Under the pieces are notes generated by a model. That model ran no database searches, was not told the origin of the DNA, and saw nothing but the letters and a program-made list of their open reading frames with translations. A program made the position numbers and the translations under genes. 46,346 nucleotides of DNA from Candidatus Krumholzibacteriota bacterium (GTDB lineage Bacteria > Krumholzibacteriota > Krumholzibacteriia > LZORAL124-64-63): contig JBDLKA010000019.1 in the NCBI GenBank assembly GCA_039714075.1, positions 1-46,346 on the forward strand, given 5' to 3'. Within the stretch, counting starts at the first letter, position 1; the number at the start of each line of letters is the position of its first letter. Below are positions 1,346 to 31,229 of the stretch, piece by piece.

Positions 1346-1774
1346 TTACCTAGTTTTATGGGAATCTTCAGAAAGGGAGTCGGCGGGGGCCAGGACGGCA
1401 AAGTCGACCAGGGGGGCCAACCGTGCCGAAAGCATCGGTCCGATACCCTTGACCCGGCGTAAATCCTCGGCAGTACGGAAAATGTGGCCTTCGGCCCGCA
1501 CTTCCTGGATTCGTTCGGCCAGGACCGGCCCCACCCCCGGCAACAGCGTCAGGCTGTCGACACTGCAGGTATTTACGGGCAGCGGAGTGGTCAAAACGGG
1601 CTTGGGAGCCTTCTCGGCGGCTGCGGCGTCGGCGGGGGTCAGAACGATTTCATCCAGCCAGAGGTGGTCGCGCCACTGCCCGTCGGGGGTGATGAGCATC
1701 TTGTGGCGGATCAGGCGCCCGGTCATCAGCAGGGTGAAGGCCAGCAGGATGCCGGCGGCATGACGGCGGGTCAG
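1346..1774 (-). CDS. comEA: ComEA-family helix-hairpin-helix DNA-binding protein with N-terminal membrane anchor
   Basis: C-terminus VNTCSVDSLTLLPGVGPVLAERI...FRTAEDLRRVKGIGP is a tandem HhH. Hydrophobic segment AAGILLAFTLLM. Start uncertain: CTG 1774 overlapping the upstream TGA, or a slightly later ATG. The track's extension to 2119 lies inside the upstream gene. Confidence 0.8.
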   Translation of the reverse strand: MTRRHAAGILLAFTLLMTGRLIRHKMLITPDGQWRDHLWLDEIVLTPADAAAAEKAPKPVLTTPLPVNTCSVDSLTLLPGVGPVLAERIQEVRAEGHIFRTAEDLRRVKGIGPMLSARLAPLVDFAVLAPADSLSEDSHKTR

Positions 1775-4320
1775 TAGCGGAAATCCCAGTGAAGCCTTAG
1801 ATCGAGTTCCTGGCCCGGACTGAGGGCCCCCGCAGTCATCCGGGTCCTGTCGCCGGTCAGGTTGCGGAAGGCCAGGGACAGGTTCACTCCGACCAGGCGG
1901 AAGCCCACCAGCAGATCGTGGACCGTCCGCTGGGGCAGCCGGTAGGCGCGGGTCACGTCCCAGGGATCGGCCATCTCCGACTGCCGGGTGCTGAACAGGG
2001 CCAGTTGCAGGATCCCGTCCTCCCGGAAGAAGTGGTTCTCCCACATCAGATGAAGGCGGAGATACCTTGCGGGGGGCAGATAACTCGCCCGCCCCTTCTT
2101 CTCGTCGAAACTTTGCCACGTTCCCTCCAGCCGCACCCGGCCCCAGCCCAGGAATCGTCCCTCCCGGCCCAGGCTTCCGGTCACCCTGGCGGCGTCCATC
2201 TCCAGACCGTTGGCCCAGGTCCCGCGGTCCGCGCCGGGGGCCTCGGCCTGCCAGGAAATGCCCTCGGTCAGGCGCCGCACACTGCCGTCGATTGCAAGAT
2301 CGATTCCCAGCAGCCGGCGTTGCAGGAACAGGCCCGCCCGGACGGTTTTCTCCCTTTCCAGGTCCTGATTCGGCAGCAGCGAAAGACTCCGGCCGTCGAC
2401 AACATGCAGGATGGGCGTCAACAATTCGTCACTGCGGGGGGCCCGGCCGCCGTAGGTGAGATCGAGGCTCCACCAAGGTGCCGACCCGGCGGATCCCCAG
2501 GCCAGTTCCATCTCCGGCCCGAAGCCGGCGTGGTGGTCCCACTGGCCCCCGGCACCCAGAACCAGGCGGGTGGGTCCGGCCCGGACACCGGTCCGCGCCA
2601 CCATCAAGGCATTGTTGCCCCGGCCCTGCCCGTCGCCGACGAGCCCGTCCGCCCAGGCGGCGGCGGTTCCGCTGTCGTAAACGGACCAGCGTGAAAAGCG
2701 GACCGTCAGCCCGGTCAGGGGTCGTTGTCCTTCCTGGTCCCGGTCCGGGACACGGTCCAACTCGAGGCTCAATCCCTCCCGGCCGGTTTCGATCTTCCGT
2801 CTTTCGCTGTCCACTGCGAGCGTGTCCCGGTCGCCCCATTCGAGATCCCGGTTTTTCCAGAACAGGGAAGATTGCCAGCGCCAGGAACCGGTGTGGGTTG
2901 TCATGGTCGCGGCGATGCCGTCGTCCCAGACCTCCTGCTGGTCGGCACCCAGAACCGGCAGGCTGTCCTTGGTCTTGCGCCCGTTGGAATATTCCACCGC
3001 CAGCCTGTTTTCATCATCGAGGTTGCGGAACAACCGGGTCCGGCTCTGGCGGACCTTGCCGTGGCCCGGGAAACCGTCGGGCCGCGAGTTCAGGAAAAGG
3101 TCATCGGGATCTTCGGTGAAATTGTAACCCTCGTTGTCAACGGATTCCTCGAATTCGAAGGCGGCCCGCCAGGCGGCCGCCGGAGTCAGGACATGGACGG
3201 CCCGGAAATAGGATTCGTGGTTGCCCTTGATGCCCCGGTAGGCGGAAACGGCCTTGCCCGGGTCCGGGTCCATGGTGGTCAGGTTGACGAGCCCCCCGGT
3301 TCCGCCCCAGCGGTCGGTTCCCATGCCGTCGAGTTGCTGGACAAGGCCCTCGGTCGGGACCAGCACCGGGTCGTCGGCCAGCACGTGCCCGGTGCCCACC
3401 GGAATCCCGTCCCGCACAAACATGGGCGAGCGGCTGGTTCCGGCTTCGCCGATGACCATCGCCGAAGCGCCCAGCCCCCCGTCGCTGAGGGCGACCCAGG
3501 GCGAATACCAGGCCATCCGGGTCAGGGACGTGGGCGCGAAGGGAGTCCACAGGGGGCGCTCCCAGCCCATGGCCTCGGCGGCCCTCCGGGAGGAGGCGGG
3601 CAAACGGGGTCCGGAATCAGCCACCGGAGCTGTCAGGGAATCGGGCTCCTGGGTGGCCTCTTCTGCAGGTGTCTGGGCCGGGGACCCATCGGCACCAACC
3701 AGGGTCAGCAGGAATACGACGGGCATAATGGACGCGCCGGCCTTGCCGGCGGCCAGGGGGGAACGTCCCAGGTGCGCCAGGCGAGGCAACAGGACGGGCA
3801 TCAGGACGGTGAAGATGGCGGTATTGACCCCGGCATGGATCAGGAAAAAGGGAATGGCGCCCGCCAGCACCACCGCCGCGGACAGTTCAAAAGCCTGGAC
3901 GATGGCCAGATTGGTGAACAGATCGTAAACCAGGGTGGCGGAAAAACCGGTGGCGGCCGCCAGGATCAGGGCCGTCATGCGCCCGCCCTGTCGGAGGGCC
4001 CCGGCCAACTGCCGTGAACCCAGGTTGCCGATTACGCCGGCCAGTCCCAATCCGCAGATCTGGGCCAACAGCAGAAGCGGATGCGGAAGACCATAAGGGG
4101 AACCAAGGGAGTAGATGGCGGCGGCCAGAGCGCCCGCCAAAAAGCCCTTCCGCGGCCCGAGAACGGCGCCGGCAAGGGCAATGACGAGGGTCATCAATTC
4201 CACGTTGGGGACTCCGGCCAGCAGATAGCCCACCCCCACTGACGTACCCGTAAAAAGGCCCAGCAGCACGGGCTGCCGGACCGGGGATGTTTTCGTCTTG
4301 CCGTTTCCCGGTTTATTCAT
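1771..4320 (-). CDS. Fusion: ECF transporter S-component (CbrT-like, ~aa 1-190) + internal signal-like segment + TonB-dependent-receptor-like beta-barrel (~aa 216-849)
   Basis: About six hydrophobic helices with the GVPNVELMT motif and GAVLGPRKG. Then RSPLAAGKAGASIMPVVFLLTLVGADGSPA-Q. Plug-like DGIP...GGTGGLVNLTT, amphipathic beta-strands, and a TBDR-like end FRNLTG...PGQELDLRLHWDFRY. One uninterrupted frame. Confidence 0.75.
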   Translation of the reverse strand: MNKPGNGKTKTSPVRQPVLLGLFTGTSVGVGYLLAGVPNVELMTLVIALAGAVLGPRKGFLAGALAAAIYSLGSPYGLPHPLLLLAQICGLGLAGVIGNLGSRQLAGALRQGGRMTALILAAATGFSATLVYDLFTNLAIVQAFELSAAVVLAGAIPFFLIHAGVNTAIFTVLMPVLLPRLAHLGRSPLAAGKAGASIMPVVFLLTLVGADGSPAQTPAEEATQEPDSLTAPVADSGPRLPASSRRAAEAMGWERPLWTPFAPTSLTRMAWYSPWVALSDGGLGASAMVIGEAGTSRSPMFVRDGIPVGTGHVLADDPVLVPTEGLVQQLDGMGTDRWGGTGGLVNLTTMDPDPGKAVSAYRGIKGNHESYFRAVHVLTPAAAWRAAFEFEESVDNEGYNFTEDPDDLFLNSRPDGFPGHGKVRQSRTRLFRNLDDENRLAVEYSNGRKTKDSLPVLGADQQEVWDDGIAATMTTHTGSWRWQSSLFWKNRDLEWGDRDTLAVDSERRKIETGREGLSLELDRVPDRDQEGQRPLTGLTVRFSRWSVYDSGTAAAWADGLVGDGQGRGNNALMVARTGVRAGPTRLVLGAGGQWDHHAGFGPEMELAWGSAGSAPWWSLDLTYGGRAPRSDELLTPILHVVDGRSLSLLPNQDLEREKTVRAGLFLQRRLLGIDLAIDGSVRRLTEGISWQAEAPGADRGTWANGLEMDAARVTGSLGREGRFLGWGRVRLEGTWQSFDEKKGRASYLPPARYLRLHLMWENHFFREDGILQLALFSTRQSEMADPWDVTRAYRLPQRTVHDLLVGFRLVGVNLSLAFRNLTGDRTRMTAGALSPGQELDLRLHWDFRY

Positions 4321-4326
4321 GGCCGC

Positions 4327-4355
4327 ATCTTAAGTTAACAGACGCGGTCGATCAA
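4327..4355 (-). promoter_or_regulatory. Sigma70-like promoter, probably giving a leaderless mRNA for the ECF-TBDR gene
   Basis: TTGATC-N17-TAAGAT, then 6 nt (gcggcc), then ATG 4320. No Shine-Dalgarno. Confidence 0.55.
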
Positions 4356-4396
4356 GAATTCCCGAAAAAACGAATGTCGTTGCCCGGACGCGGGGA

Positions 4397-5875
4397 TCAG
4401 GCGGAGGCCAACTCACGCAGACGGTTGCCGACGTCCAGGAAATTGGGGGCCTTGGCCTGGATATCCTCGTAGATCTCCAGGGCGGCGTCGGGCCGGTCGG
4501 CCGCCTCGTGGGCCATGCCCATGTGATAGCGCAGGCCGAGATATTCCCGGGAATCCACTTCGGCAAACTGCAGGCCGGAATTCAGGACCGTGACGGCTTC
4601 GTCGGGATTGCCCGCCCGCTGCAGGGTGACGCCCCACATTTCGTGGGCGCGGATGGTGTAGTCATCGTCGGCGGCGGCGGTCTCGAAGCTGTCGCAGGCC
4701 TTGTCGAAAAGCCCCATTTCCAGATAGACCAGGCCCATCTCGTAGAGGCGGTCCGCGTCGTCATCGTCGCCGCCGCCCCCCACCACGCTGCCGATTTCCG
4801 CGGCAATGGTATCGACCTGCTTGGATTCGTCCCCCAGGACGGCGCTGGAATCCTCGGCCAGGATCTGGGAAAGCAGATCCACGGACTCGGCCGGTTCCTC
4901 TTCAGCGGGGGCCTCGGCGGATTCAACCGTTTCGGTGGCCTTGTCCGCTTCGCGTGAGGCCGCGGCGATGAGATCGGCCATGTCGGGACCGTCGTCCGAG
5001 TCGATGACCAGACACCCATCTTCGTCCTTGGCATCATCTGTGGATGACGGGGTCTCGGGAGCCGAGGCGGTATCGGCCGCCACCTCAGGACCATCAGCCG
5101 CGTCGGCGGCCGGAGTTTCTTCCGCGGCAACCTCGTCGGCGGCGTCTGCCTCGGCCGCGGGCTCTTCATTGTCGGCGCCCAGGCTGACGGAATTGTAATC
5201 CGCCATCTCGCCGGGGGTGGCCTCGCCGGGATTGATTTTCCTGTTCCAATTGCCGAATTCGGGATAGTTCCTGATTTCCGGCGTCCCCGCCAAAAGACCG
5301 TCCACCATTTTACAGGCGGCGTCGGGATCGCCCGCGTCGAACATCAGACACGCCTGCAGGCAGCCTGCGCGGCCGGCTTCCAGTTTCTTGTCGAAGGTCC
5401 GGAAAATCTGGCCCAGCGGTTCCAGGATCCTCAGGCTGGTGGGATAGAGTTCCAACAGTTTCAAACAGCGCTTCTGGAAGATCTCCTGGATTTCCCCACT
5501 CATCTGGCTGCCGCTCTCCAGGAAAGCGGTGGCGTGGGTCTCCCCTTCCACCACCAGGTCCTGCGAAGACCGGATTTCGGCCAGGTACCAGTGCGCGTGC
5601 ATGTTTTTGTCTTCGTGGCGGAGAATCTTCTTGCAGATGGCGACGGAATTATTGAGCAGCCCGGTCTTGCGATATTTGGTGGCGGCGGACAGGAAATGCT
5701 TGATGGCCTGCCGGGTATCCCCGGATTTCAAAAACAGGTCACCGAGTTCGTTGATGACCGTCGGATTGCTCTTTTCCACTTCGAGTATCTGCTCGTAAAT
5801 GGAGATCGCCTGTTCCCAGTTCCGGTCTTTCCCGGCCTGATAGGCTTTCTGCTTCAATTGGCTCAGCTTGGACAA
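4397..5875 (-). CDS. Cytoplasmic tetratricopeptide-repeat protein with acidic disordered linker, possibly pilus/polarity associated
   Basis: N-terminal TPRs (WEQAISIYEQILE, ELGDLFLKSG), Ala/Glu/Asp-rich low-complexity middle, C-terminal TPRs (YEMGLVYLEMGLFDKA, LRYHMGMAHE...FLDVGNRL). TTG start, no signal peptide. Confidence 0.75.
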   Translation of the reverse strand: MSKLSQLKQKAYQAGKDRNWEQAISIYEQILEVEKSNPTVINELGDLFLKSGDTRQAIKHFLSAATKYRKTGLLNNSVAICKKILRHEDKNMHAHWYLAEIRSSQDLVVEGETHATAFLESGSQMSGEIQEIFQKRCLKLLELYPTSLRILEPLGQIFRTFDKKLEAGRAGCLQACLMFDAGDPDAACKMVDGLLAGTPEIRNYPEFGNWNRKINPGEATPGEMADYNSVSLGADNEEPAAEADAADEVAAEETPAADAADGPEVAADTASAPETPSSTDDAKDEDGCLVIDSDDGPDMADLIAAASREADKATETVESAEAPAEEEPAESVDLLSQILAEDSSAVLGDESKQVDTIAAEIGSVVGGGGDDDDADRLYEMGLVYLEMGLFDKACDSFETAAADDDYTIRAHEMWGVTLQRAGNPDEAVTVLNSGLQFAEVDSREYLGLRYHMGMAHEAADRPDAALEIYEDIQAKAPNFLDVGNRLRELASA

Positions 5876-5980
5876 GAGGCAGACCCCCGCTCTCAGCAGT
5901 CGGCATAACGATGAAAATTCCGTAAGCCGGGCACCAATCCCGACTTCTCCTGCATATTCATCGTCGAATGTCGGAGCGGG

Positions 5981-7315
5981 TTAAGGATTAATCTTCTTTC
6001 CGCCCAGGAAAACCTCGGCCACCGGGTTGTGGCCGGCCCGATAGGGCACCAAACGGTAGTCAGGACCGTCCAGAATGATAAAATCGGCGTATTTTCCGGG
6101 CGCCAGGGAGCCCACATCCGCCGCCCGTCCCAGGGCCCAGGCCGCGTTCAGGGTGGCGCCCACCAGGCTCTCGGCAGGAGTCAGACGCATTTGCGTGCAG
6201 GCAATGGCCATGATCAGGGGCACCGACAGGATCGGACAGCTTCCCGGGTTGAAGTCCGAAGCCAGGGCCACGGCGCAGCCCTGGTCGATCATGCCGCGGC
6301 CGGGAGCGTAGTGTTTGAGTCCCAGGGTGAACACCGTTCCGGGCAACATGACCGCGACGGTGGCGGACCCGGCCAGGGCCTGGCGGCCCTTGTCGTCGAT
6401 CATGATCAGGTGATCGGCGGAATGGGCGCCCAGGCGAGCGGCCAATACCGCCCCTCCCATGGGTTCCAGTTCATCCGCGTGAACGGTCAGGGACATACCC
6501 AGGTCTCGGGCCCGGGTCAGGATGATCAGGCTTTCCTCCAGTCCGAAGACCGAGGGTTCGCAAAAAATATCACAGCGTTCCGCCAAGCCATCGCGGACCA
6601 CAGCGGGCAAGATTTCCTCGGTGATCAGCCGGACGTATTCCTGCCGTTTCTCCCGGTATTCGGCGGGGACCTCGTGGGCGGCCAGGCAGGTGCGGACCGA
6701 CCTGATGCCGATCTCCCCGGCAGCGGTCGCCGCGGCGCGCAGCATCTTCAACTCCGACTCCGGACTCAGCCCGTAACCGCTCTTGATTTCCACCGTCGTG
6801 GTCCCATGGGCCAGCATTTCGCGCAGCCTGACGGCGGCCAGTTCGGCCAGATCCTTTTCCGACCTTTCCCGCAGGTCGGCGACCGATGCGTGGATCCCGC
6901 CCCCGGCCGCGGCGATTTCCAGGTAGGTCTCACCCTGGATGCGTCTTTCGTATTCGTCCTGCCGCGTGCGGCCGAAAACCGTATGGGTGTGGGGATCGAC
7001 AAAGCCCGGGATCACGCTGCAACCCATGGCGTCGACCACTTCCACGCCCGCCGGAATTTCCGCGCCCCCGAACAGGGCGGACAGGACCTCCACCTCGGGT
7101 CCGCAGGCAATGATCTTGCCGCCACCGACAGCCAGGGCCGCCCCGGTGAAGATGCCCAGATTAGACATGCCCTCCCGCCGCCGCGGTCCCGCTCCGTCCC
7201 GGTCGTCCAGACCGGGATCGTGAACGGTGCAAAGCTGGCCGATGCCCGTTACCACCAGGTCAACGGTGAAGGAACCATCCGGGTTTTCCGGTGCCAGGCG
7301 GGCGGATTCGTTCAT
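5981..7315 (-). CDS. hutI: Imidazolonepropionase
   Basis: PGFVDPHTHTVF, GGGIHASV, GTTTVEIKSGYGL, HADEL, SADHL and ALASDFNPGS amidohydrolase motifs. Adjacent to hutH. Confidence 0.95.
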   Translation of the reverse strand: MNESARLAPENPDGSFTVDLVVTGIGQLCTVHDPGLDDRDGAGPRRREGMSNLGIFTGAALAVGGGKIIACGPEVEVLSALFGGAEIPAGVEVVDAMGCSVIPGFVDPHTHTVFGRTRQDEYERRIQGETYLEIAAAGGGIHASVADLRERSEKDLAELAAVRLREMLAHGTTTVEIKSGYGLSPESELKMLRAAATAAGEIGIRSVRTCLAAHEVPAEYREKRQEYVRLITEEILPAVVRDGLAERCDIFCEPSVFGLEESLIILTRARDLGMSLTVHADELEPMGGAVLAARLGAHSADHLIMIDDKGRQALAGSATVAVMLPGTVFTLGLKHYAPGRGMIDQGCAVALASDFNPGSCPILSVPLIMAIACTQMRLTPAESLVGATLNAAWALGRAADVGSLAPGKYADFIILDGPDYRLVPYRAGHNPVAEVFLGGKKINP

Positions 7316-7342
7316 GATGACTTCCTCTTTCGGTTCCGGTGG

Positions 7343-8938
7343 TCAGGTATCCATCTTCAGCGAGTCCAGGGGCGCCCTGGTCACGGCCGGCAACTTCCCG
7401 CCGCGGACCCAGGCGCTCAGGCGCTCCACGTCTTCGCTCAGCGACCTGTCCGCGGGATCGGGCCGGGAAATCTTTTCGATTTCGGCCAGAAGGGCGTTCA
7501 GGGGTGCGGACAACCCCAGGGGCTGGCGGCCGGCGCGGGACGCCAGGTCTTCCCGGGTGATGAACTGCAACGCCCGGGACGCGGCCAGCATTTCCAGCGC
7601 CACCACCGTCTCTGTCCGATCGAGCACGCCGGCCAGTTTCAAGGCCGCGACGCTGCCCATGCTCACGTGGTCCTCCTGCCCGTCGGAGGTGGGCACCGAA
7701 TCCACGGCCGCGGGAAAGGCCTTGGCCTTGTTCTCCGTCACCAGGCCCGCGGCCAGGTACTGGACAATCATCAATCCCGATTCCAGGCCGGGTTCCGCCG
7801 CCAGGAACCGCGGCAAGCGGCCGCCGTTGCCACCCAGAAGAAGATTGATCCGGCGCTCGGCGATATTGGCGATCTCACTGACGGCCTGGTAGAGAAAATC
7901 CAACTGGTGGGCCAGGGGCTGGCCGTGGAAATGACCTCCGGTGACCACCAGTTCGCGGTCCGGAAACAGAACCGGATTGTCGGTCACGGCGTGCGCCTCG
8001 CGCAAGAACACCTCGCCGGCGGACCGGGCCACGCCCAGGCTCGAGCCCAGGACCTGGGGACTGCAACGCAGCGAATAGGGATCCTGGACGCGGGCGCAGT
8101 CGTGGTGAGCCGACATGATCTCACTGCCGTCCAAAAGGGCCCGGAAACAGGCGGCGACATCCTCGATGTCCTCATGAGGCCTGAGGCGGTGATACTCCTG
8201 TGCGAAAGGGAGGGCGCTGCCTTCGAGGGCCTCCAGCGAAAGGGCCGCCGCCAACGTGGCGCGGCCGATAAGATTCTTGGCCCGGGACACGGACAACAGT
8301 CCGATGCTGTTCATCAGCTGGGTGCCGTTGATCAGGGCCAGGCCTTCCTTGGCCTCCAGTTCCAGGGGCTTGCGTCCCCGGGCGTCCAGGACGGGCCCCG
8401 CGTCGATCTTTTTTCCTTCTTCATCCACCAGATGCCCTTCGCCCATCAGCACCAGGGCCAAATGGGACAGGGGCGCCAGATCTCCGGAAGCGCCGACCGA
8501 TCCGCGGGAAGGAATCCACGGGTGCAGATCAGCCTCCAACAGCCACAAAAGCTGCTCCACGACATCGACCCTGGCCCCGGAAAACCCGTGGGACAGGCTC
8601 ATGGCCCGCAGCAGGATCATGCCCCGCGCTTCTTCCCGGCTCAGGGCGGAACCCGAACCGACCGCGTGACTGCGCACGAGGTTTTTCTGCAGTTGCACCT
8701 GCTGGGCCGGCGGAATCACGGTGTCGGCCAGGCGCCCGAAACCGGTATTGACGCCGTAGATGCGTTGGTCGGAATGCGCCAGCTTCACCCGGAATTCGTT
8801 GCACTCGTCGATTTTTTCCCGGGCGGTATCCCCCAGCCGGACCGCGGCCCGGCCCCGGCAGACAGCCATGAACATGGCCAGGTCGAGATCCTGGTCTCCG
8901 ATGACGAAGGCGGGGTTTCCACTGGGACTCACAACCAC
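7343..8938 (-). CDS. hutH: Histidine ammonia-lyase
   Basis: YGVNTGFG, LVRSHAVG, MIO-forming GSVGASGDLAPLSH, KEGLALINGTQ, QDPYSLRC, QEDHVSMG. Confidence 0.95.
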   Translation of the reverse strand: MVVSPSGNPAFVIGDQDLDLAMFMAVCRGRAAVRLGDTAREKIDECNEFRVKLAHSDQRIYGVNTGFGRLADTVIPPAQQVQLQKNLVRSHAVGSGSALSREEARGMILLRAMSLSHGFSGARVDVVEQLLWLLEADLHPWIPSRGSVGASGDLAPLSHLALVLMGEGHLVDEEGKKIDAGPVLDARGRKPLELEAKEGLALINGTQLMNSIGLLSVSRAKNLIGRATLAAALSLEALEGSALPFAQEYHRLRPHEDIEDVAACFRALLDGSEIMSAHHDCARVQDPYSLRCSPQVLGSSLGVARSAGEVFLREAHAVTDNPVLFPDRELVVTGGHFHGQPLAHQLDFLYQAVSEIANIAERRINLLLGGNGGRLPRFLAAEPGLESGLMIVQYLAAGLVTENKAKAFPAAVDSVPTSDGQEDHVSMGSVAALKLAGVLDRTETVVALEMLAASRALQFITREDLASRAGRQPLGLSAPLNALLAEIEKISRPDPADRSLSEDVERLSAWVRGGKLPAVTRAPLDSLKMDT

Positions 8939-8960
8939 TCCCGGATCCCGGCCGGCGGGA

Positions 8961-13728
<4,768 letters not shown>

Positions 13729-20987: not shown

Positions 20988-21034
20988 CGGCCTCCTAGAT
21001 TGGCCAGGGGTATGTAAGTGGACAAACAACCCGG

Positions 21035-22006: not shown

Positions 22007-22032
22007 TGTATCCTCCCGGAAAAAACCGGCGG

Positions 22033-25000
22033 TCATTTTTCCACCGCCAGGGTCAAAGTCCTGATCTCGACGCCGCTGCCGGCATCGTATTCCAACCGGG
22101 CCAGGTACAAGCCGCTGGCAATCCCCGGTATGGGCAGCATGAATTCGTTGATGGAGCCGGGCGTGACCGGGATTTCCGCCTGGGCCACGCTTTCCCCTTC
22201 GAGGTTGTAGATCCAGATGTGGGCCGCACGGCTGCCGGCGCTGTAGAACCGCACCGTCACCTCGTCCGAAACCACGGGATTGGGGTAGAGAATCACCCGG
22301 TCGGTTTCCGCCGCTATCGGAGCGGCGGCGCCCAGACTGTTGGCCGTGCCCGCCGAACCACGCCGGTACGAACCGCCGCCGGGACCACGCCACTCGCTGG
22401 TCCGGGAATCCTCGGGTGCCGCGTTGAGCAGGTGGTAGGCCGCCAGACGGCCGTTCACGAACTGGCGCTCCAAAGGAGGCCCGGTATAGCCGCCGGGCGA
22501 CACCAGCCACAACACGCGGCCGTCATCCGGACCGCCGACCGCCAGGGCGCCGGTCTTGCGGTCCCCCCAGCGCAACGGCATTTGGGGCAACAGACGCCCG
22601 GTGGCGTCAAGACCCACCAGGTGGCCGCCGTCGGTATTGAAATGGATCTCGTTGACGCCGTCGCCCGTGGCGTCCGCGACAACGATCGGTCCGGCGATCC
22701 GGGTCATGTCCGGCAACGGAAACAGATCATAGAAGCGCACAGGGAAACCGCGCAGGGCCACGCCGTCGGGCCGGAAGGCCAAAATTCGTTTTGCCGTCGC
22801 CAGCACCAGGTCGTCGTTCCCGTCGCCATCGACATCGGCGACGGCGGGGTCGGTTACCAGAGGTTCCACCACGCCGAGGACCGTGCCCGCATCGGCAACC
22901 GCCCCGTCCGGCTGAATCCTCCAGCATCCCAGTTCACCCGCGGAATCGAACACATGCAGTTGATGGCCGCCGGCGACCGCCACCACCGCGGTCCGGCAGG
23001 GCAATTCCAACGCTTCACGAACGAAGGGATGGAAGGCGGGCAGGGAACCCAGCCCATCCTCCAACTGGCGCACCAAATGCCAGCCTCCCCGGGAGATGAC
23101 CGGAACCATATCGGTGCCGTCGGTGCCCGGGATGGGCGTCGCCACCTGCAACCCTGATCCCAACGTGGTGATCCTCAAGGAACCAAGCACGGCATTCCCG
23201 GATTCATTGAGAACATACAGACTGTCCGGATCAACAGGACACAGGATCCGTCGCGTATCGGTTCGCCAGACAAGTGGAACAGGTCCGCCGGCCAGGTTTT
23301 CCCCGACCTTAAAAGGCTCTGTTGCCGCCGGCGCTTCGTATTCGGGGAGATAGGTAACCCCAACCTTGCCGTCGGTGGTGCCCCAAACCAGATCCACGCC
23401 GTCATCGGCTCTGTCCCGCACGAAGGGAGATCCGCTCAGGGGAGCACCCAGGCTCTGAAAGGCGCCGGACCCTTCGGGTTTCCCCGGCACATCCGGCCAC
23501 CCACCGCGAAACCCATTGGCCCAGACATGGAACAGGGCGGCCCGGTAATCGCCGCCGGACCAGTTTTCAGGCGCCGCCTCGGCGAAGATCAGGGCTTGTT
23601 GCTGGGCCCCGTACAAGGTTACCGGAGTCAAGGATTCCGGATCGATGGCCCTGGGTAACGTTTCCCGTTCCCCCCCTGACCCCAGGGACTCAAATTCACC
23701 AATTGGAGGCAATTCATGGGGAAAGCCCCGGCCGACCGCCCCCAGATCGCCCTTGAACTTCATCACGCTGGAGGAAAAAACCGTGCGCGGCCCGATCTCG
23801 CTGAGGGACAGGCCCGACCAGGATCGATCGAAATTGCGGCTCGAGGGGAATCCCTCCACGTGGAGAGTCTCGTAACCGGTCGGATTCCCGTTCAGGTCGA
23901 AACCGCCGAAGGGATCACGATGGGACCCGTACCACCCCAACACGTAGGCTTCGAGCACGCCGATGTCCTGGATGCCGTCCGCCTCGACCAGCTTCAACCC
24001 GTCGTTGAAGGAATTGATGGTGTTGTCTGGCAGTTGCTCCTCGATCCGGTCGGCGTTCACGTGCCAGACCAGCAGGCCTCCGGGGGGCATGAAATAATCG
24101 TACAGTCCGGAATTATCCCATTCCTCCAGCCGCTGACCGGCCAGGTAAAGCACAACCCCGGTGGTCTCATCCCTTTCAAAGCGGATGTCGTCGAAAGGGG
24201 TTTCACCCACATCAAATGGCACCCACCGGTTTTCCAGCAGGAACCACTCCCGCGGGGACAGCCCCGCCCGGTAGGCCTGGGGATAATCCGGATTGAAATC
24301 CCCCACCTGGTCGTACAGCCAATACTGGTCACGAGGCACGCCCACGGCCGGCAGGAGATAATCACCTTCCCGCCCGTCGAGTTCCCCCATTTCCAGCCAG
24401 CCGAGGAACCACTTGTTCCAGGCCGACAGCGAAGGCGGCAGAACACCCGTGGCCGAAATGATGAAGGTGTCGTTTTCAGCGGTGATGGTCCCCATGGTCA
24501 CCGGCAGGTTGGTCCCCGAATCCATCAGGTCCCAGATACCCACCGAGGGCAATCCCGTGGAGGTGCTGTAGACATCCGGCAGCCCCAGCGCGTGGCCGAA
24601 CTCGTGATAGAAGGCCGCCGCGATACTGCCGGGAAAATCATCCTGGTTGGTGGTCTCGGGAATGATGGAGCATTCGCTGAGCTTGCCCGGCTGGCCCTCC
24701 GGGTCGGTGCCGATCAGGTCGATCGGCTCGCCCAGGGTCACGAAAAAGGTGGGAATGTCGTTGGGCGAATCCCCGTTGATGTCGCTTTGCCAGTCGCTGC
24801 CCGCATGGACGAAAATGACATAGCCGAAGTCGTTGCTGTCACCGTATTCCGCCAGGTTGACACTGCCGTCGGCCTGGGTTTCCTGGTCCGCCTTGACCAT
24901 CATGTCCTGCACCAGGCGTTCCAGGCTTTCCAGGGTCCAGAAATCGTCGGCGCCCGGTCCGTAATCGGCGACATCGGTCAGTTTGTAACTGGCGTCGTTT

Positions 25001-25632
25001 TCCTCGGGCAGGACCCGGCCCTCGATATGCAGCCGGCCGCCGGACATGAAGCGGTAGTACTCCGAAAGTCCCTGCAGATGGGCTTCGAAATAAGCCTTGT
25101 TCCGGGGCGGCGGATCCACTTCCAGGGGTTGGGGATCGGCCAGGGGTTCCAGAACGAAGTCGCCGCTCGGGTCGATCGTGGTCAGGTGGGGGTCGCGGTT
25201 GGTCTCGAAACCGATCCGGATGATCAGCACCCGCAAGGTGTCGTCGACCGCCTGGGCGCCCGCGGCGGATTTGTCCAGCAAAGCCTCGCCCAGGCCCCGG
25301 GAACGCAAGCGGTCCCGGCTCCTGGTGGACATATGCTGTTTCCCCACCAGATGGTGAATGATGTTCCAGCGGCGGGAATATTCACCCTGGCGCCGGAGTT
25401 CCCTTTCGATCCGCTGTGGTCCGTCGGGCAGGGCGCGGATCTCGTCCGTGGTCCAGCGCCGGGCCGGAATGTTTTCGTACCGTCCCGCTTGCTCCACGGC
25501 AAGGCACGGGACCGCACCGGCCGCAAGGATCGTCACGAGCACGAACACCGCGACCAGCGAATGATCGGCGAACACGAACCGGATCAGCCGGTCTCTGATG
25601 GATTTTCCAGGCTGCAAGGCCTTTCTCCTCAA
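22033..25632 (-). CDS. Secreted M6 (immune inhibitor A-like) metalloprotease with FG-GAP-like repeats and T9SS C-terminal sorting domain
   Basis: Signal peptide. IFVHAG, zinc motif HEFGHALGLPD, WDLMDSG, WNKWFLGW, FLLENR, LLVWHV. Repeats ADVDGDGNDDLV and ADATGDGVNEI. CTD LYPNPV...IYNLEGE...ASGLYLARL...TLAVEK. Confidence 0.88.
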   Translation of the reverse strand: MRRKALQPGKSIRDRLIRFVFADHSLVAVFVLVTILAAGAVPCLAVEQAGRYENIPARRWTTDEIRALPDGPQRIERELRRQGEYSRRWNIIHHLVGKQHMSTRSRDRLRSRGLGEALLDKSAAGAQAVDDTLRVLIIRIGFETNRDPHLTTIDPSGDFVLEPLADPQPLEVDPPPRNKAYFEAHLQGLSEYYRFMSGGRLHIEGRVLPEENDASYKLTDVADYGPGADDFWTLESLERLVQDMMVKADQETQADGSVNLAEYGDSNDFGYVIFVHAGSDWQSDINGDSPNDIPTFFVTLGEPIDLIGTDPEGQPGKLSECSIIPETTNQDDFPGSIAAAFYHEFGHALGLPDVYSTSTGLPSVGIWDLMDSGTNLPVTMGTITAENDTFIISATGVLPPSLSAWNKWFLGWLEMGELDGREGDYLLPAVGVPRDQYWLYDQVGDFNPDYPQAYRAGLSPREWFLLENRWVPFDVGETPFDDIRFERDETTGVVLYLAGQRLEEWDNSGLYDYFMPPGGLLVWHVNADRIEEQLPDNTINSFNDGLKLVEADGIQDIGVLEAYVLGWYGSHRDPFGGFDLNGNPTGYETLHVEGFPSSRNFDRSWSGLSLSEIGPRTVFSSSVMKFKGDLGAVGRGFPHELPPIGEFESLGSGGERETLPRAIDPESLTPVTLYGAQQQALIFAEAAPENWSGGDYRAALFHVWANGFRGGWPDVPGKPEGSGAFQSLGAPLSGSPFVRDRADDGVDLVWGTTDGKVGVTYLPEYEAPAATEPFKVGENLAGGPVPLVWRTDTRRILCPVDPDSLYVLNESGNAVLGSLRITTLGSGLQVATPIPGTDGTDMVPVISRGGWHLVRQLEDGLGSLPAFHPFVREALELPCRTAVVAVAGGHQLHVFDSAGELGCWRIQPDGAVADAGTVLGVVEPLVTDPAVADVDGDGNDDLVLATAKRILAFRPDGVALRGFPVRFYDLFPLPDMTRIAGPIVVADATGDGVNEIHFNTDGGHLVGLDATGRLLPQMPLRWGDRKTGALAVGGPDDGRVLWLVSPGGYTGPPLERQFVNGRLAAYHLLNAAPEDSRTSEWRGPGGGSYRRGSAGTANSLGAAAPIAAETDRVILYPNPVVSDEVTVRFYSAGSRAAHIWIYNLEGESVAQAEIPVTPGSINEFMLPIPGIASGLYLARLEYDAGSGVEIRTLTLAVEK

Positions 25633-25658
25633 TCAGGGGTTAGGTTTGGCAGCCTAAA

Positions 25659-26693
25659 TCAAAAACGGTAGCCGAAGGACAGCCTGCTGACCTTGGGCAA
25701 TCCCCGGGCCTGCGGCACCGAGGCGAAGTCGAAGGTGATCGCCTGGCCGACCCAGCGGTCCATGTCCACGCCGAACCCGAAGGTCGTGTCGCGGATATCG
25801 CCGTAGGCGGCGCTCTTGTAACCGAACCTCACGTACAGGGAGCGCAAGTAGTTCCACTCGACACCGTACCCGAATTCCTCCTGGGCGGTGTCCAGTCCGA
25901 AACCGTAGTCCTCCTGGTCGTTGTCCCACTTGTAGAGCGGCGCCAGATAGTCCGCAACCACCAGAAGCCCCATGAACTCGCTGTGGTACAGGCTGAAGGC
26001 GATTCCCAGGGTGGCCTTGCGCGGCATGGGATCGCTCTGGTCGGCATCCACGTGCTTGATATCCGGACCCAGGTTGGCGACGGCCAGGCCGATATTCGAA
26101 CGCAGGGAAGGGACCTTCCACAGCAGACCCACGTCCACCCCGAAGCTGTCGCCGCTGCCGCCGCCCTGGGGATCCTGGATCATCGAATCGTCGGACAGCT
26201 TGTCCCGGAAATATTTGACACCCAGACCCACACCGATGTTGCGCGTGACACGGACCCCGTAGTTCGCCCCGAAGGCAAACATGTAGGAGCTGAAAAGGCC
26301 TTTGGGATCACCGTTTTCGTCGGTGGCCTGCTGGTCCCCCATGTCCAGGTAGTTGAAATAGGCACCGATCGCCCCGGTGGAACCCATGGGGGCCGCGTAC
26401 CCGAGCCAGGTTAGGCCGATGTCGTCAGCCAGGCCTTCAGCGAGGCGGGAATACATGACGTGCACGTCATGATCCTTGGGCCGCTGCGGCAGGAAGGCGA
26501 GTCCGCCGGGGTTCCACCACATGGACGTCGCATCCTGGGACAGGGCCGTGCCCGCTTCCCCGAGGGCGTTGTAACGGGCGCCGACCGGGAAACTGAGGTT
26601 GATGGCCCCGGCGCCGGAACCGGCCAAAGCCGCACCGGCCATGCCCATGACGAGAACCGCCAACAGGGCGGCCACCACAAAGATCCTTCTCAT
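25659..26693 (-). CDS. porV: PorV/PorQ-family T9SS outer-membrane beta-barrel
   Basis: Signal peptide. LSFPVGARYNALGEAGTA...MWWNPGGLA (FadL/PorV N-terminus), DVGLLW, NLGP, terminal SFGYRF. Directly downstream of the porU-like gene. GGAGG RBS. Confidence 0.85.
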   Translation of the reverse strand: MRRIFVVAALLAVLVMGMAGAALAGSGAGAINLSFPVGARYNALGEAGTALSQDATSMWWNPGGLAFLPQRPKDHDVHVMYSRLAEGLADDIGLTWLGYAAPMGSTGAIGAYFNYLDMGDQQATDENGDPKGLFSSYMFAFGANYGVRVTRNIGVGLGVKYFRDKLSDDSMIQDPQGGGSGDSFGVDVGLLWKVPSLRSNIGLAVANLGPDIKHVDADQSDPMPRKATLGIAFSLYHSEFMGLLVVADYLAPLYKWDNDQEDYGFGLDTAQEEFGYGVEWNYLRSLYVRFGYKSAAYGDIRDTTFGFGVDMDRWVGQAITFDFASVPQARGLPKVSRLSFGYRF

Positions 26694-26753
26694 TTCCGAA
26701 TACCTCCGGTTTTGTTGACGCCGCCGGCCCGAAGAAGCCCCGCGGCGGCGGTA

Positions 26754-29700
26754 CTACCGCATGATGACGAGCTTGCCCGTCCTGGTTATATCCCTGCCCT
26801 GGCTTCCACCGCCAAGGCCTCTCAAAACAAACAGATAGGTACCATTGGCGATTTCATCGCCATGGTTGTCGCGGCCGTCCCACTCGAGAATGCGGGGACC
26901 CGCCTGGGAAAATTGCCGCCGCAGGGTTTTCAGCCTGTTTCCCGCCAGGGTATAGATCTCCCACTGGACCTCCATCGGGTCGCTGAGTTCGAATATCAAT
27001 CGGCAGGGTCCGGCAGTCGGGTTAGGGAAAAGGGTGATCCGGTCGATTTCCGGAACCAGCGCCGGAACCACCTCGAAACTGAGCGTATCGGTACCCACGT
27101 TGCCCAGGGCGTCGCTGGCGTACAGGGACACCAGGTGGAGTCCCATTTTGAGATCGCCCGGCAGGGGGATGGACACCCGCCCCTGCACGTAGCTGTTGGC
27201 ATCGTACGCGAAAGACCCGGTGACATCGGTCATGAACCCCGATTTGTCGAATTCCATCAGCAGCGAGTTGCCCGGCGTGGTTCCCAGGATGGAGATGCCG
27301 CTGGTGTCGGCCAGGGTCGCATTGAGGAGGGTGCCCGGGGATACCTTGAACCGGTTGTCCTCGAAGGCCAGGCCGATCTCGGGCCCGGTGACGTCATCGC
27401 TTGGACCGGTCGCCGAAACCACCGCCGGAACGTACTGCACGGCCGCGTGCATATCGTCCGGACTGCCGACCAGGGTGCGCAGACGGGCATCCTCGCCGTA
27501 CCTGATCTTGGTCGGGACCTTGAAGTCGACCTTCAGGTCCCCCGCCCCCGCCACGCCCGTGCCGATGAAGACCGGCGAGCCCGCGGCGACATACGTGTTC
27601 CAGCGGGGAACCTTGACCGACCCGCCACCCGCGATCGAGCTGTCCCGCAGGGAATTAATGTAGCCCTGATCAAATCTCGCGTCTTGAGCCAGAAGATCGT
27701 AGTTGTCCCCGGGGCCGTACAGGAACTTGCTTCCGGCGGCACCCACGACGACCGATTGCAGGGCGCCCGCCTTCAGCGTATCGAGGCTGGCGGCGGCGTA
27801 GACCAGGTCGTCCTCCGGATTGGGCAGCCGCAGACCGGGATCCCCGAAGAAATTGTAACGCTGCGAATTGGACCGACTGATGACGTATGTGTTTTTCGCC
27901 AGCATCAGCGCCTCGGCTGGGGTGACTGTCGCCAGGACATGGCGATCCGGATAGAGGTTCGAGAAAAAGGCGTTGGACAGATGTTCGTTCGGGGTGATGA
28001 AACTGACCTGGCTGGCACAAATGGCGCCGATGCCGCCCCCGTTCCCGGCCAGGACGAACTGCTCGGCCATGGACAACCGGCTGGTGCTGTCGAAGACCCC
28101 CACGTCGCAACTGAAGGCGATGAAGACCGGACGCTTCATGCCGTTGGTCAGGTTCGTGATATCGCTGGACTGGAAGATCTGTTCGTCCGCAAGGTTGTCC
28201 TCCGCGCCGTGACCCACGTAATAGTAGATGGTGGCGCCCCGGCTCAATTCATTGTTGATATCCCCCCGCATGGCGGGTTTGACCCGGGACGAAGGAGGAA
28301 AATCGTAGGCCACCCCGTACACTTTCTGCACATCGAGGGAGACAGGCAGCAGGTTGTTGCTGAGAACCTCGGCCTGGACCGTATGTTGATCCTCTCCCAA
28401 AACAGGGTCGGGCCAGGTGCTGAACTTCACACAATCGTCCGCGGTGAACAGGACCCGGTTGCGCCACAGCCCTTCCTCCGGCGAACGTGAGTACCGGATG
28501 GCCCGATCCACCAGGTCCCGGGCTTCGCCCAGGGAGCTCGCGGGAAGACGGCCACAGGCAAGATCCGGAAGGTCGGGAGAAACCCAGGTGCCCGATTCGA
28601 ACGAAACCAGCCCGTCATCCGTCGCATAGGCCATATCGCCATAGGAGGAAGGAATAACCGGGTAATTCGTGCGCAAAACCGTGGGCAGGAAATCAAAGAG
28701 TTCAAACGCGGGATCGGGATCCCTGTAGTGGCGGAAATCCCGGCTGGTGTTGCCCAGGAAGCAGACGAACCGCAGGCGGTGCCCGCCCTGCTCGAACACA
28801 TGCTTCAGGTAATTGCGGATCGCGTGGACGTCCTTCTGGCCACCTGAAAAATTGTCGTAGATGTCGTTGGCCGAAACATGGGTCGCACGGGGCGAAGCCA
28901 CTCCCGGCAGATTGGTGGAATGGAAATCCGCCAGATCGCGGGCGGGGTCTTCGAACTGGCCCGCATGGACAACGATGTAGTCCCAATCCACGGGGTTGCT
29001 GCGCAGGGAGACGGGGTTGGTGCGCCGTCCCGAATCCACATTCAGCAGGTCGCCGGGCACCGCGGCCACGAAATGGCGGTCTGTCTCCGGTTCCCGGACG
29101 AAACCGTAGGTGAAGATCGCCGGGGCTTCGGTGTCCGCTGTTCCCGTATAGGCCGTGGCCGCAGCGGGGTCGGAAACCTCCCACATCAGGGGGGTGACGC
29201 CCGCCGGCGCGGTGAGTTGCAGATCCACCGCCGTACCGGGCACCGCCACGTGTTCCCCCCAGTGGGCGAATTCCAGCTGTCCCGGCCGGTCGGTCAGGTC
29301 CAGACCCGCCCAATAGAATATGTCGTAACTGTCCAGGGCCAGCGCCAGGGTGGTCGCACCCGCGTTGTTGTTGATGTTCTTGAGGGTGATGCGATTCAGC
29401 CCGGCTGTGACCGACTGGGAATCGCCGATGATCCGCAGGCGCAGGGAATCGTTCTGCGCGGACCTGTTGAAGGTAACGGTCCCCTGATTGGCCTGGTCGT
29501 CATTCAGCCAGCCGGCCGCTTCAAACACGTAGGACCAGGTCGTCCGCGGATAAACACCCGCCAGATCGATTACGAAACGTGCGCTCGACCCGGGCACGGG
29601 CGTCCGCAGCGTAAAGGATTCGGGACGAGACGAGGTGATTGTGTTGTCCCAGGCCCAGTTGTCTTCGAAATACCCGGCGGTGTCCCGGACCTGACGTTCC

Positions 29701-31229
29701 TGGTGCAGACGCAACAGGGCGTCCGGTACGGCTTCGCCTCCGGTGGGCACGGCCTCGACGGCCGGCACCCTGCGGGGGGCGCCGGGTAGGGGCGACGGCG
29801 TGGCCGCCGCCTCCCAGGTCAACCAATAGGTCGCATGGCCGGCGAAGGGATGATCGTAGTGGGCGTCCCTTCCCGCTTCGGGATCCAGCCGGTCGGTCCA
29901 GGCGCTGGTCGGAACACCGTAGAAGCGGATTTCATCGTCCAGGTTCCACTCACCGTCGCCGCCGTCCCGGACTTCGATGGCCACTTCGTTCAATTCCACA
30001 CGTTCGCTCTGGAGGGAATCGGGCAGGCCCGCATCCGCGGCCAGGGCCAGGCCGCCGCCCCGGTAGAGGCGCAGCTTGTCGGGATCGATATCGCTGGTGG
30101 TAACTCCGTAAATGAGCAGTTGCTGTCCCGTCAGCCGGTACAGGCCGCTGCGGGAGACATCGAGTTTGACCCAGTGCGCCGTCAGGGCGAAAGGATCAAA
30201 AGCCTGGGCCTTGGCAACGTTTCGACGGGCCAGGGCGGCCTGGCGGCCACCCCGGGCCAGGGCCCGGAACAATTCGGCATTCAGGAGGCCGGCCGGAACG
30301 ACTTCGTTCCAGCGATCCTCCTGGCCGGAGGCTTCGAAATCACGGGCCAGGTTCAATTGCCGGCGTTGGGCGGCGCTGGACGGGTGGCTGATTTCCACGG
30401 TGATGCCGGCCAGGACACCGCCCTTGACTCCGAGGGAAACCATCCCGCCCACGAGGGGCACGGACCGGTGGACCGCGGGGTCCCCCATCGTCACCAGGTC
30501 GCCTTCGACCAGGGCCTCGCGCGGTTCGCGCCACCATGTGACGTCGAACACCCTGGCGAAAACCGGCTGCCGCGTGGGCACGGCCAGGGACAGGCTGAGA
30601 CCGGGAGGCAACAGGCGCGGATTCTCGGAAAATTCATCTTCCACGCGCCGGGGCAGGGCCCACTTCAGATCTTCATCGGCAAGGGACTGCCAGTCGGCCG
30701 GAGACTTCAGGACGGGGAAATCGATCCGCACCACCGATTGCTCGGAGCTGGACGAAAGGAGACGGACACGGGGCGTCCCCATTTCCGCGGACTGCCCGAC
30801 CGGCTCGGCGGCCATGGCTGCGGCCGGCGAGACCACGGACAGGACGACGAAACAGCCGACAAAAATCGCCACCTGCCAGACCAGGGTTTTCGGACCCAAC
30901 TCGCGTCCGTGCGGCAGAAGGCCGGTGTGGGTGGGAAACAGGAATCGATCGCGGCCCATCCGGCCGAGTTTTTGAAATAGATTTTCCAAATCGGGAATCA
31001 TGCCGAATACTCCTCCGACCACGGCCGGCCAACTGGAAAAAGGCATCAATAACAGAATGACAAGGCTTGCCAGGCCGCCCCCCAATTCCAGCCGCCAATC
31101 GGGATGGTCGTAATGGGGAACGACATCCAGCACGGCGTGGGAAGCCAGGCCCGCCGCCGCGCCCAGGTAGACGTTGCCCGTCACACCGCCCGCCAGGGCA
31201 CCCGCAGCGAAATGGGTGAACAGGCACAT
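26754..31229 (-). CDS. porU: PorU-like C25 (gingipain-family) T9SS sortase with N-terminally fused ~140-aa membrane His/Asp hydrolase-like domain
   Basis: AAGGAG RBS before ATG 31229. WVKLDVSRSGLYRL, IYDNFSGG, CGRLP, WRNRVLFTADD, catalytic dyad YVGHG...FSCDVG, FFGDP, D..GP.I, CTD/FlgD-Ig LFPNP...WDGRD...ANGTYLF...KLVIMR. Confidence 0.85.
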   Translation of the reverse strand: MCLFTHFAAGALAGGVTGNVYLGAAAGLASHAVLDVVPHYDHPDWRLELGGGLASLVILLLMPFSSWPAVVGGVFGMIPDLENLFQKLGRMGRDRFLFPTHTGLLPHGRELGPKTLVWQVAIFVGCFVVLSVVSPAAAMAAEPVGQSAEMGTPRVRLLSSSSEQSVVRIDFPVLKSPADWQSLADEDLKWALPRRVEDEFSENPRLLPPGLSLSLAVPTRQPVFARVFDVTWWREPREALVEGDLVTMGDPAVHRSVPLVGGMVSLGVKGGVLAGITVEISHPSSAAQRRQLNLARDFEASGQEDRWNEVVPAGLLNAELFRALARGGRQAALARRNVAKAQAFDPFALTAHWVKLDVSRSGLYRLTGQQLLIYGVTTSDIDPDKLRLYRGGGLALAADAGLPDSLQSERVELNEVAIEVRDGGDGEWNLDDEIRFYGVPTSAWTDRLDPEAGRDAHYDHPFAGHATYWLTWEAAATPSPLPGAPRRVPAVEAVPTGGEAVPDALLRLHQERQVRDTAGYFEDNWAWDNTITSSRPESFTLRTPVPGSSARFVIDLAGVYPRTTWSYVFEAAGWLNDDQANQGTVTFNRSAQNDSLRLRIIGDSQSVTAGLNRITLKNINNNAGATTLALALDSYDIFYWAGLDLTDRPGQLEFAHWGEHVAVPGTAVDLQLTAPAGVTPLMWEVSDPAAATAYTGTADTEAPAIFTYGFVREPETDRHFVAAVPGDLLNVDSGRRTNPVSLRSNPVDWDYIVVHAGQFEDPARDLADFHSTNLPGVASPRATHVSANDIYDNFSGGQKDVHAIRNYLKHVFEQGGHRLRFVCFLGNTSRDFRHYRDPDPAFELFDFLPTVLRTNYPVIPSSYGDMAYATDDGLVSFESGTWVSPDLPDLACGRLPASSLGEARDLVDRAIRYSRSPEEGLWRNRVLFTADDCVKFSTWPDPVLGEDQHTVQAEVLSNNLLPVSLDVQKVYGVAYDFPPSSRVKPAMRGDINNELSRGATIYYYVGHGAEDNLADEQIFQSSDITNLTNGMKRPVFIAFSCDVGVFDSTSRLSMAEQFVLAGNGGGIGAICASQVSFITPNEHLSNAFFSNLYPDRHVLATVTPAEALMLAKNTYVISRSNSQRYNFFGDPGLRLPNPEDDLVYAAASLDTLKAGALQSVVVGAAGSKFLYGPGDNYDLLAQDARFDQGYINSLRDSSIAGGGSVKVPRWNTYVAAGSPVFIGTGVAGAGDLKVDFKVPTKIRYGEDARLRTLVGSPDDMHAAVQYVPAVVSATGPSDDVTGPEIGLAFEDNRFKVSPGTLLNATLADTSGISILGTTPGNSLLMEFDKSGFMTDVTGSFAYDANSYVQGRVSIPLPGDLKMGLHLVSLYASDALGNVGTDTLSFEVVPALVPEIDRITLFPNPTAGPCRLIFELSDPMEVQWEIYTLAGNRLKTLRRQFSQAGPRILEWDGRDNHGDEIANGTYLFVLRGLGGGSQGRDITRTGKLVIMR

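Follow-up and report, generated by a model that had tools for sequence, protein, structure and literature searches.

Two conserved gene fusions in Krumholzibacteriota and their probable processing by signal peptidase I into paired inner-membrane and exported proteins

Described systems and the two fusion genes

The cytochrome b-c1 precursor FbcH of Bradyrhizobium japonicum is cut at an internal signal sequence. Two open reading frames (ORFs) in a 46,346-nucleotide stretch of DNA (the window; contig JBDLKA010000019.1, assembly GCA_039714075.1) from Candidatus Krumholzibacteriota bacterium have a similar architecture, in which a polytopic inner-membrane protein, an internal signal and an exported protein follow each other in one frame, with two products that would belong to one pathway. 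ORF1 joins a domain like the S component of energy-coupling factor transporters (ECF-S-like) to a domain with the fold of TonB-dependent receptors, and ORF2 joins a small membrane protein to PorU, a protein of the type IX secretion system (T9SS). Both fusions are real and conserved. We read both ORFs as polyproteins that are probably processed by signal peptidase I, with a probability of about 65%, a reading supported by a conserved pattern at positions -3 and -1 of the predicted cut and by split ancestral genes.

Like FbcH, both ORFs have relatives in which the two parts are encoded by separate genes. However, both products of FbcH stay in one inner-membrane complex and are respiratory, whereas the second product is here predicted to go to the outer membrane or the cell surface, and the partners are related to transport and secretion. 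Cleavage of FbcH is proven, whereas here it is predicted from the sequence. Cleavage is also known for the polytopic enzyme LtaS, where it limits the activity of the protein. According to PMC12260438, LtaS of S. aureus is cleaved by the signal peptidase SpsB. LtaS resembles the present fusions in that a type I signal peptidase cut past the last helix releases a large extracytoplasmic domain; it differs in being a single enzyme, whereas here the cut would part two unrelated, separately functional proteins, in a two-membrane organism. In flavivirus-type polyproteins, membrane segments alternate with lumenal domains and host signal peptidase cuts internally. These are viral proteins of the eukaryotic endoplasmic reticulum with many products, whereas the genes described here are two-part cellular bacterial genes.

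BtuB and the PorU of Bacteroidota have the same fold or family as the exported parts of ORF1 and ORF2, and split relatives within the class and family keep N-terminal signal peptides. In contrast, the export signal of both ORFs is internal, with a whole membrane protein ahead of it, and the receptor of the window is too diverged for Pfam. The mechanism of internal cleavage already has precedents; new here are the pairing of an inner-membrane protein with an outer-membrane or surface-bound protein, and the partners involved. No description of either fusion was found in the open-access text of the literature, and we know of no described case of internal cleavage by signal peptidase for outer-membrane barrels or T9SS components.

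Architecture, conservation and origin of the fusions

The original prediction, made from the letters of the window alone, had proposed two ORFs that encode polyproteins with internal signal peptides. Both ORFs and their junction peptides are present in the sequence as described (Table 1). Residues 19-176 of ORF1 gave borderline matches to two ECF S-component models of Pfam, PF07155 (26.8 bits, cut-off 26.7) and PF12822 (26.7 bits, cut-off 30.7), and the NCBIfam folT family reached only 13.7 bits. The AlphaFold model shows six long helices in residues 15-185 at a high predicted local distance difference test score (pLDDT). The genome, which is 92% complete, possesses one CbiQ/EcfT match, at 24 bits and below the 25-bit cut-off, and nine TonB_C matches. 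The search with Rfam at gathering thresholds gave no match in the window, and therefore no riboswitch clue to the substrate of ORF1. A histidine kinase encoded elsewhere in the source genome (L061, G000:C14:20005-21936) has an N-terminal membrane domain that matches the Pfam family VUPS, 'vitamin uptake-like sensor' (E 7.5e-15), and represents another use of an ECF-S-like fold in this genome.

The original prediction had named the C-terminal part of ORF1 a TonB-dependent receptor. No Pfam family was detected in residues 230-849 up to E = 10, so that neither Plug (PF07715) nor TonB_dep_Rec_b-barrel (PF00593) was matched, and the C-terminal part (about 620 residues) had no sequence match in the PDB. 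AlphaFold modelled this part as plug and barrel (pLDDT 87.9). Foldseek gave 194 PDB matches at E <= 0.001, all of the rows shown being TonB-dependent transporters, and the best match to the barrel was BtuB of E. coli (3m8d; E 7.9e-21, TM score 0.77 on the target). The fold search thus settled the TonB-dependent-receptor fold after the sequence searches had found nothing. Six out of twelve distant fused homologues (P0100, P0109, P0140, P0142, P0144 and P0151) carry the Pfam Plug domain, and three out of the twelve (P0100, P0142 and P0144) match the TonB_dep_Rec barrel model. The receptor part of P0144, which belongs to candidate division KSB1, also possesses a carboxypeptidase-regulatory-like domain. 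The naming therefore stands on the fold and on the distant fused homologues, although no sequence model matches ORF1 itself.

The exported part of ORF2 had been predicted to be PorU, and this identity was confirmed by the NCBIfam PorU model NF033707, which matches residues 351-1489 with 466.7 bits (cut-off 420). The C25 peptidase domain (PF01364, E 1e-72) and the C-terminal T9SS-type domain (FlgD_ig, 27.8 bits, cut-off 27) were found as well. The frame of ORF2 is open from 31307, but the start that is conserved among orthologues lies further in, at an ATG (31229). We take this ATG as the real start because AAGGAG lies about 9 nt upstream, because it is situated just past the stop of a small upstream gene, putatively Trm112-like as judged by eye, and because the open frame of five orthologues starts just two codons ahead of MCLF (Met-Cys-Leu-Phe).

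The small domain of ORF2 was modelled with confidence as five helices (pLDDT 92.4). No Pfam family was found for it at E <= 10 except a chance holin match, and none of 17 short homologues carries a Pfam domain. The fold searches gave no credible relative, with a best E of 1.9 in Foldseek and a best Z of 4.4 in VIA-align among 48,161 chains, and the protein atlas returned unnamed clusters only. YdjM (PF04307), a weak lead from the atlas (0.76), was rejected, as the genome scan with PF04307 gave nothing at E <= 10. An alignment of 20 sequences contains 22 invariant columns, including His31, Asp35, His39, Asp41, Asp80, Glu82, His101 and His107, and His6 is nearly invariant. Together, these His, Asp and Glu residues point to a metal site within the membrane. 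The small protein is present as a single copy in 20 of the 41 genomes analysed (the source genome, 24 others of its family and 16 from other families of the class), each time fused to porU or adjoining it.

Table 1. Features of the two fusion genes and of the neighbouring porV-type gene in the window
Feature	Coordinates	Strand	Description
ORF1	1771..4320	minus	849 aa; ECF-S-like domain, signal-peptide-like segment, linker and receptor-fold domain in one frame
ORF1 residues 15-185	3766..4278	minus	six-helix ECF-S-like inner-membrane domain; Pfam and model
ORF1 residues 181-215	3676..3780	minus	basic stretch, short hydrophobic core, small-residue site; predicted cut between Ala215 and Gln216 (nt 3676/3675)
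ORF1 residues 216-257	3550..3675	minus	low-complexity linker with Asp-Ser/Thr-hydrophobic motif; disordered in model
ORF1 residues 258-849	1774..3549	minus	plug and beta-barrel, TonB-dependent-receptor fold; last residue aromatic
ORF2	26754..31229	minus	1491 aa; small membrane protein fused to PorU
ORF2 residues 1-140	30810..31229	minus	small membrane protein without known family; invariant or nearly invariant His/Asp/Glu
ORF2 residues 113-140	30810..30893	minus	last transmembrane helix (113-133) and tail Ser-Pro-Ala-Ala-Ala-Met-Ala; predicted cut between Ala140 and Ala141 (nt 30810/30809)
ORF2 residues 141-1491	26757..30809	minus	PorU: N-terminal domain, C25 peptidase, C-terminal T9SS-type domain; own signal peptide absent
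PorV/PorQ-family outer-membrane protein	25659..26693	minus	directly downstream of the PorU fusion; NCBIfam NF033709, 179.8 bits (cut-off 90)

Sixteen of the 25 family genomes (G000, G002-G007, G011-G013, G015, G016, G018 and G022-G024) encode ORF1 as one frame free of stops, and in G001, G008 and G010 it is interrupted by contig ends, consistent with a fusion. Five genera (G014, G017, G019, G020 and G021) possess the receptor only, which there begins with an N-terminal signal peptide at the corresponding position; the search with an ORF1-derived query did not find the ECF-S part in them. Seventeen of the 25 family genomes encode the small protein of ORF2, every time in a frame that continues into PorU, and so do three of the 16 genomes of other families, though there as a separate gene. 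The PorU fusion alone is missing in G023 and G024, and both fusions are missing in the five genera. Since the pattern of absence is largely common to both, the distribution points to common descent more than to a general mechanism.

Beyond the genome set, the fusion of the small protein with PorU forms 116 clusters at 90% identity, which come from NCBI, JGI, ENA and Logan assemblies; most of the proteins have about 1480-1510 aa, and the contigs reach up to 4.7 Mb. About 32 fusions of the ECF-S-like part with a receptor were counted by us among the best 150 representatives at 50% identity, one of these clusters being annotated as candidate division KSB1. The ECF-S-like part is also fused to a much more diverged receptor in G027, which belongs to another family, and the receptor architecture of the KSB1 protein is unlike that of the Krumholzibacteria type. 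We infer from these two cases an old origin of the ECF-S/receptor fusion, or else several independent origins. Short homologues, of about 137 aa and about 400 aa, were considered as split versions in close relatives and rejected, being contig-end fragments or out-of-frame run-on. P0041, a DUF4340 protein joined to a barrel, was also set aside, as its end looks out of frame.

Assembly, sequencing or gene-calling artefacts can be regarded, for practical purposes, as refuted. Errors do exist in some assemblies, as three relatives of about 400 aa (P0222, P0225 and P0231) run out of frame past the junction. Nevertheless, the frame is uninterrupted in 16-17 family genomes and in the 116 clusters of four assembly sources, and both halves are conserved at the protein level. 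An independently assembled contig of run X1, possibly the source sample, spans ORF2 without a difference, and short contigs of a second sample of the same study, X2, cross the ORF2 junction with substitutions only and no indels. The original prediction had pointed to assembly errors at the junctions as the first thing to exclude, and had called for fused and split forms in related genomes; errors are excluded by these independent genomes and assemblies, fusions occur in 16-17 of the 25 family genomes, and split versions occur in more distant relatives within the class.

In three of these more distant relatives (G036, G026 and G031), the small protein is encoded by a separate gene of 125-135 aa that ends 0-5 residues past the last helix, and porU begins at or beside the stop of the small gene and encodes the usual signal peptide at its N-terminus. 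In the alignment, the 'internal signal peptide' of ORF2 corresponds to the last helix of the small protein, including a nearly invariant Gln. The fused forms have gained a tail, Ser/Ala-Pro-x-x-Ala-x-Ala, and have lost the signal peptide of PorU itself. Similarly, in G036, G035 and G025 a standalone ECF-S-like gene stops after the sixth helix, and a receptor-like gene that encodes a signal peptide of its own comes directly after it, with an overlap in G036. As the split ECF-S protein ends after helix six, the seventh hydrophobic segment of ORF1-type proteins corresponds to the former signal peptide of the receptor. By this comparison, split genes are the ancestral state, and both fusions arose from gene pairs that abut tightly. 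In G023, PorU has its own signal peptide, and the preceding in-frame residues resemble the middle of the small protein (Asn-Leu-Phe-x-Lys-Leu-Gly-Lys; L043, G023:C27:122600-130800), and may be what a deletion has left of an earlier fusion.

Predicted cut sites and rival explanations

For both ORFs we propose the following membrane orientation, cleavage, responsible protease and pair functions. The N-terminal inner-membrane domain would insert via the Sec/YidC route, and the following hydrophobic segment would cross from the cytoplasm to the periplasm, carrying the large C-terminal part over. The loop ahead of each hydrophobic segment is rich in Arg/Lys and the C-terminal end of ECF S components is cytoplasmic, so that the segment should run from inside to outside. 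Signal peptidase I, for which the genome possesses two genes above the Pfam cut-off, would cut past the small-x-small site, leaving a complete inner-membrane protein and freeing the exported protein. The freed receptor would be passed to the beta-barrel assembly machinery (BAM) and the outer membrane, and the freed PorU through the T9SS to the cell surface. The fusion would set the two products at 1:1 and argues for a joint working of each pair. The pair of ORF1 may be an outer-membrane receptor and an ECF-S-type inner-membrane carrier with one nutrient in common, and that of ORF2 a membrane protein, possibly metal-binding, that acts with PorU.

The junction of the PorU fusions was read in the 116 clusters. 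Position -1 is Ala in 112 and Gly in three, position -3 is Ala in 98 and Val in 12, and position -6 is Pro in 108. Position -2 is variable (Ala 21, Ser 18, Gln 15, Arg 15, Leu 10 and others), and position +1 is mostly Ala (90) or Gln (12). The -3/-1 rule holds in the same column in 114 of the clusters, and the other two possess a shifted Ala-x-Ala. This pattern is the signal peptidase I rule under position-specific selection, and it favours cleavage over a plain membrane anchor, which would not need it. The added tail of ORF2 is disordered in the model, and the spacer past the site is no longer than the spacer past the signal peptide in split PorUs.

Similar features were found in every ECF-S/receptor junction read, from GC-rich Krumholzibacteria to low-GC lineages: each has basic residues and a hydrophobic core (about 10-14 residues), together with a small-x-small site. 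The cut sites were here picked by eye as plausible sites, and that of ORF1 was positioned by alignment with orthologues. In the model of ORF1 the junction forms only a 10-residue helix (198-207) with disordered flanks, too short for the bilayer. By our reading, position +1 is Gln in 11 of the 17 locus-derived orthologues of the ORF1 type; according to PMC5837995, the substrates of signal peptidase I in Bacteroidetes favour Gln at this position. A Leu-x-Gly/Ala-Cys string was observed in the internal segment of P0026, P0027 and P0138, and would fit a lipoprotein-type cut better than one by signal peptidase I.

Several points weigh against cleavage by signal peptidase I. The segment of the PorU fusions is a full-length helix of about 21 residues, and such helices usually stay uncleaved anchors unless a good tail follows. 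The site of ORF1 in the window, Ser-Pro-Ala/Gln, has Pro at -2, which is unfavourable under the classical rule, and the exact site is less certain; Pro at -2 is absent from all six other orthologues of the genus that were read. The evidence for the ORF1 type is weaker than that for the PorU type, because a small-x-small site is easily found by eye in an Ala-rich sequence, and an in-frame start codon often lies near the segment in genes of this type. Furthermore, fused receptors of the Krumholzibacteria type carry a mostly disordered linker of about 35 to more than 100 residues past the site, which a cleaved receptor would not obviously need. In receptor-only relatives, 4-23 residues follow the site in eight of the nine representatives with an N-terminus, and about 40 in P0029. 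The internal signal peptides of the original prediction thus stand in part: the -3/-1 pattern of the PorU junction agrees with them, but the hydrophobic segment of ORF2 is the last helix of the small protein with an added tail, and not a leftover signal peptide of PorU. Internal processing by signal peptidase I, which had been proposed as well, gains from the conserved pattern and the split ancestral genes, with the cleavage itself still a prediction.

The linker is what keeps a tether alive for the receptor fusions of the Krumholzibacteria type. A tether would mean that no cut takes place and that segment and linker hold the exported part between the inner and the outer membrane, which is most conceivable for the receptor fusion; overall we consider this rather unlikely. 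Apart from its length, the linker contains a repeated motif, Asp-Ser/Thr-hydrophobic-x-hydrophobic, which was observed 40 times in 34 sequences against 4.3 expected after shuffling, about nine-fold, and suggests that the linker has a job of its own. One to three copies, often with Pro before, are present in each sequence (ORF1 at 3550-3675, L002-L011, L025-L030, P0018-P0040, P0100, P0109, P0140 and P0142), and both linker and motif are absent from eight of the nine receptor-only relatives with an N-terminus. We take the motif to resemble the TonB-box pattern; it may represent multiple TonB boxes, or a handle or contact site between the two halves. However, the T9SS has to deliver PorU to the cell surface, and the PorU fusion shows no additional spacer. 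In receptor fusions with a short gap the tether is ruled out, as the gap is too small to span the periplasm: the carboxypeptidase-regulatory-like domain of P0144 begins about 2 residues past the site, and about 10-25 residues separate the site from the plug in P0151, P0107 and P0136. The hydrophobic core of the receptor fusions is also short for a stable anchor, and the -3/-1/-6 pattern would be superfluous for one.

An internal start before the hydrophobic segment, giving an exported protein with an ordinary signal peptide and a fusion product that is minor or tolerated, appears improbable, though it is conceivable for ORF1-type genes. Possible starts exist, since ORF2 has an in-frame TTG before Gly-Pro-Lys, an ATG opens the hydrophobic core of ORF1, and GTG, TTG or ATG often lie nearby in ORF1-type orthologues. 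The segment of P0144 still opens with Met-Lys-Ser-His-Arg, and in the five receptor-only genera the receptor does begin at such a signal peptide. On the other hand, such a start is not conserved among PorU fusions, as in eight of 14 the stretch of 14 codons that leads up to and into the helix lacks ATG, GTG and TTG, and the good Shine-Dalgarno match at the ATG 31229 has no evident counterpart, by eye, at the internal TTG. As no stop codon intervenes, the upstream start would still yield the full fusion, which the cell must handle regardless. A cut by another protease is very improbable. Candidates would be the small His/Asp-rich domain, by cutting its own tail, a protease of the rhomboid or site-2 type and, for the few copies with Cys, lipoprotein signal peptidase. 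The invariant columns of the small domain could be a metal site, and the segments of P0026 and P0027 contain Leu-x-Gly-Cys-like strings. Nonetheless, Pro at -6, Ala at -3 and -1 and Ala/Gln at +1 are what textbooks give for signal peptidase I, some genomes encode the small protein by a separate gene and thus without a partner to be cut off, and the ECF-S fusions possess the same type of site without a small His/Asp domain.

Neighbouring genes, genome scan and significance

Downstream of porU and the porV-type gene, the window encodes a large relative of M6-like metalloproteases with a T9SS type A sorting tail (22033-25632). Its best model is an 'inactivated' M6-like family, with 199 bits against a cut-off of 600 bits.

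The original prediction had taken the two ORFs as a lineage-level strategy. A hydropathy scan of the source genome covered 3030 open frames of at least 250 aa, filtered by the GC content of third codon positions, with a crude rule that may miss cases. Fifty-nine candidates had at least three helix-equivalents followed by at least 280 helix-free residues. Twenty out of the fifty-nine were run against Pfam and correspond to ordinary sensor kinases, sulfatase/LtaS-type enzymes, Fe-S proteins, FtsK, CNNM and the like; the remaining 37, apart from ORF1 and ORF2, were judged by eye only, from the junction and the C-terminus. This crude scan of the source genome gave no third multi-helix domain ahead of an outer-membrane barrel or a T9SS-tailed protein, and so does not bear out a strategy of the lineage. 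The two fusions are nevertheless family-wide, and the ECF-S/receptor fusion recurs in candidate division KSB1. Among the frames of the source genome, L074 (G000:C164:2974-5109) joins a four-helix holin-family domain (Phage_holin_4_2, E 9.7e-18) and a type I phosphodiesterase domain in one frame.

Public databases annotate the fusions as 'TonB-dependent receptor', 'C25 family cysteine peptidase', 'PorU' or 'hypothetical'. Predictors that search for signal peptides at the N-terminus only would therefore misplace such proteins. If cut as predicted, the fusions would represent natural bacterial genes that each give one protein of the inner membrane and one of the outer membrane or cell surface at a fixed ratio of 1:1, through an internal signal peptidase I site. 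They also give functional leads of a kind that is hard to get for uncultured phyla, as an orphan ECF-S-like carrier is tied to a specific TonB-dependent receptor, and an uncharacterised His/Asp-rich membrane protein is tied to PorU. More tentatively, and at somewhat less than even odds, processed polyproteins of the inner and outer membrane may be a recurrent and so far undescribed way to build envelope machines in Krumholzibacteria, KSB1 and related uncultured phyla. A BtuB-like receptor might then pass its substrate to the ECF-S carrier of the same chain as an import route across both membranes, with the linker motif serving as multiple TonB boxes or as a handle that holds the two halves together, and in type IX secretion PorU may have a hitherto undescribed partner in the inner membrane, which could be a metal-dependent enzyme.

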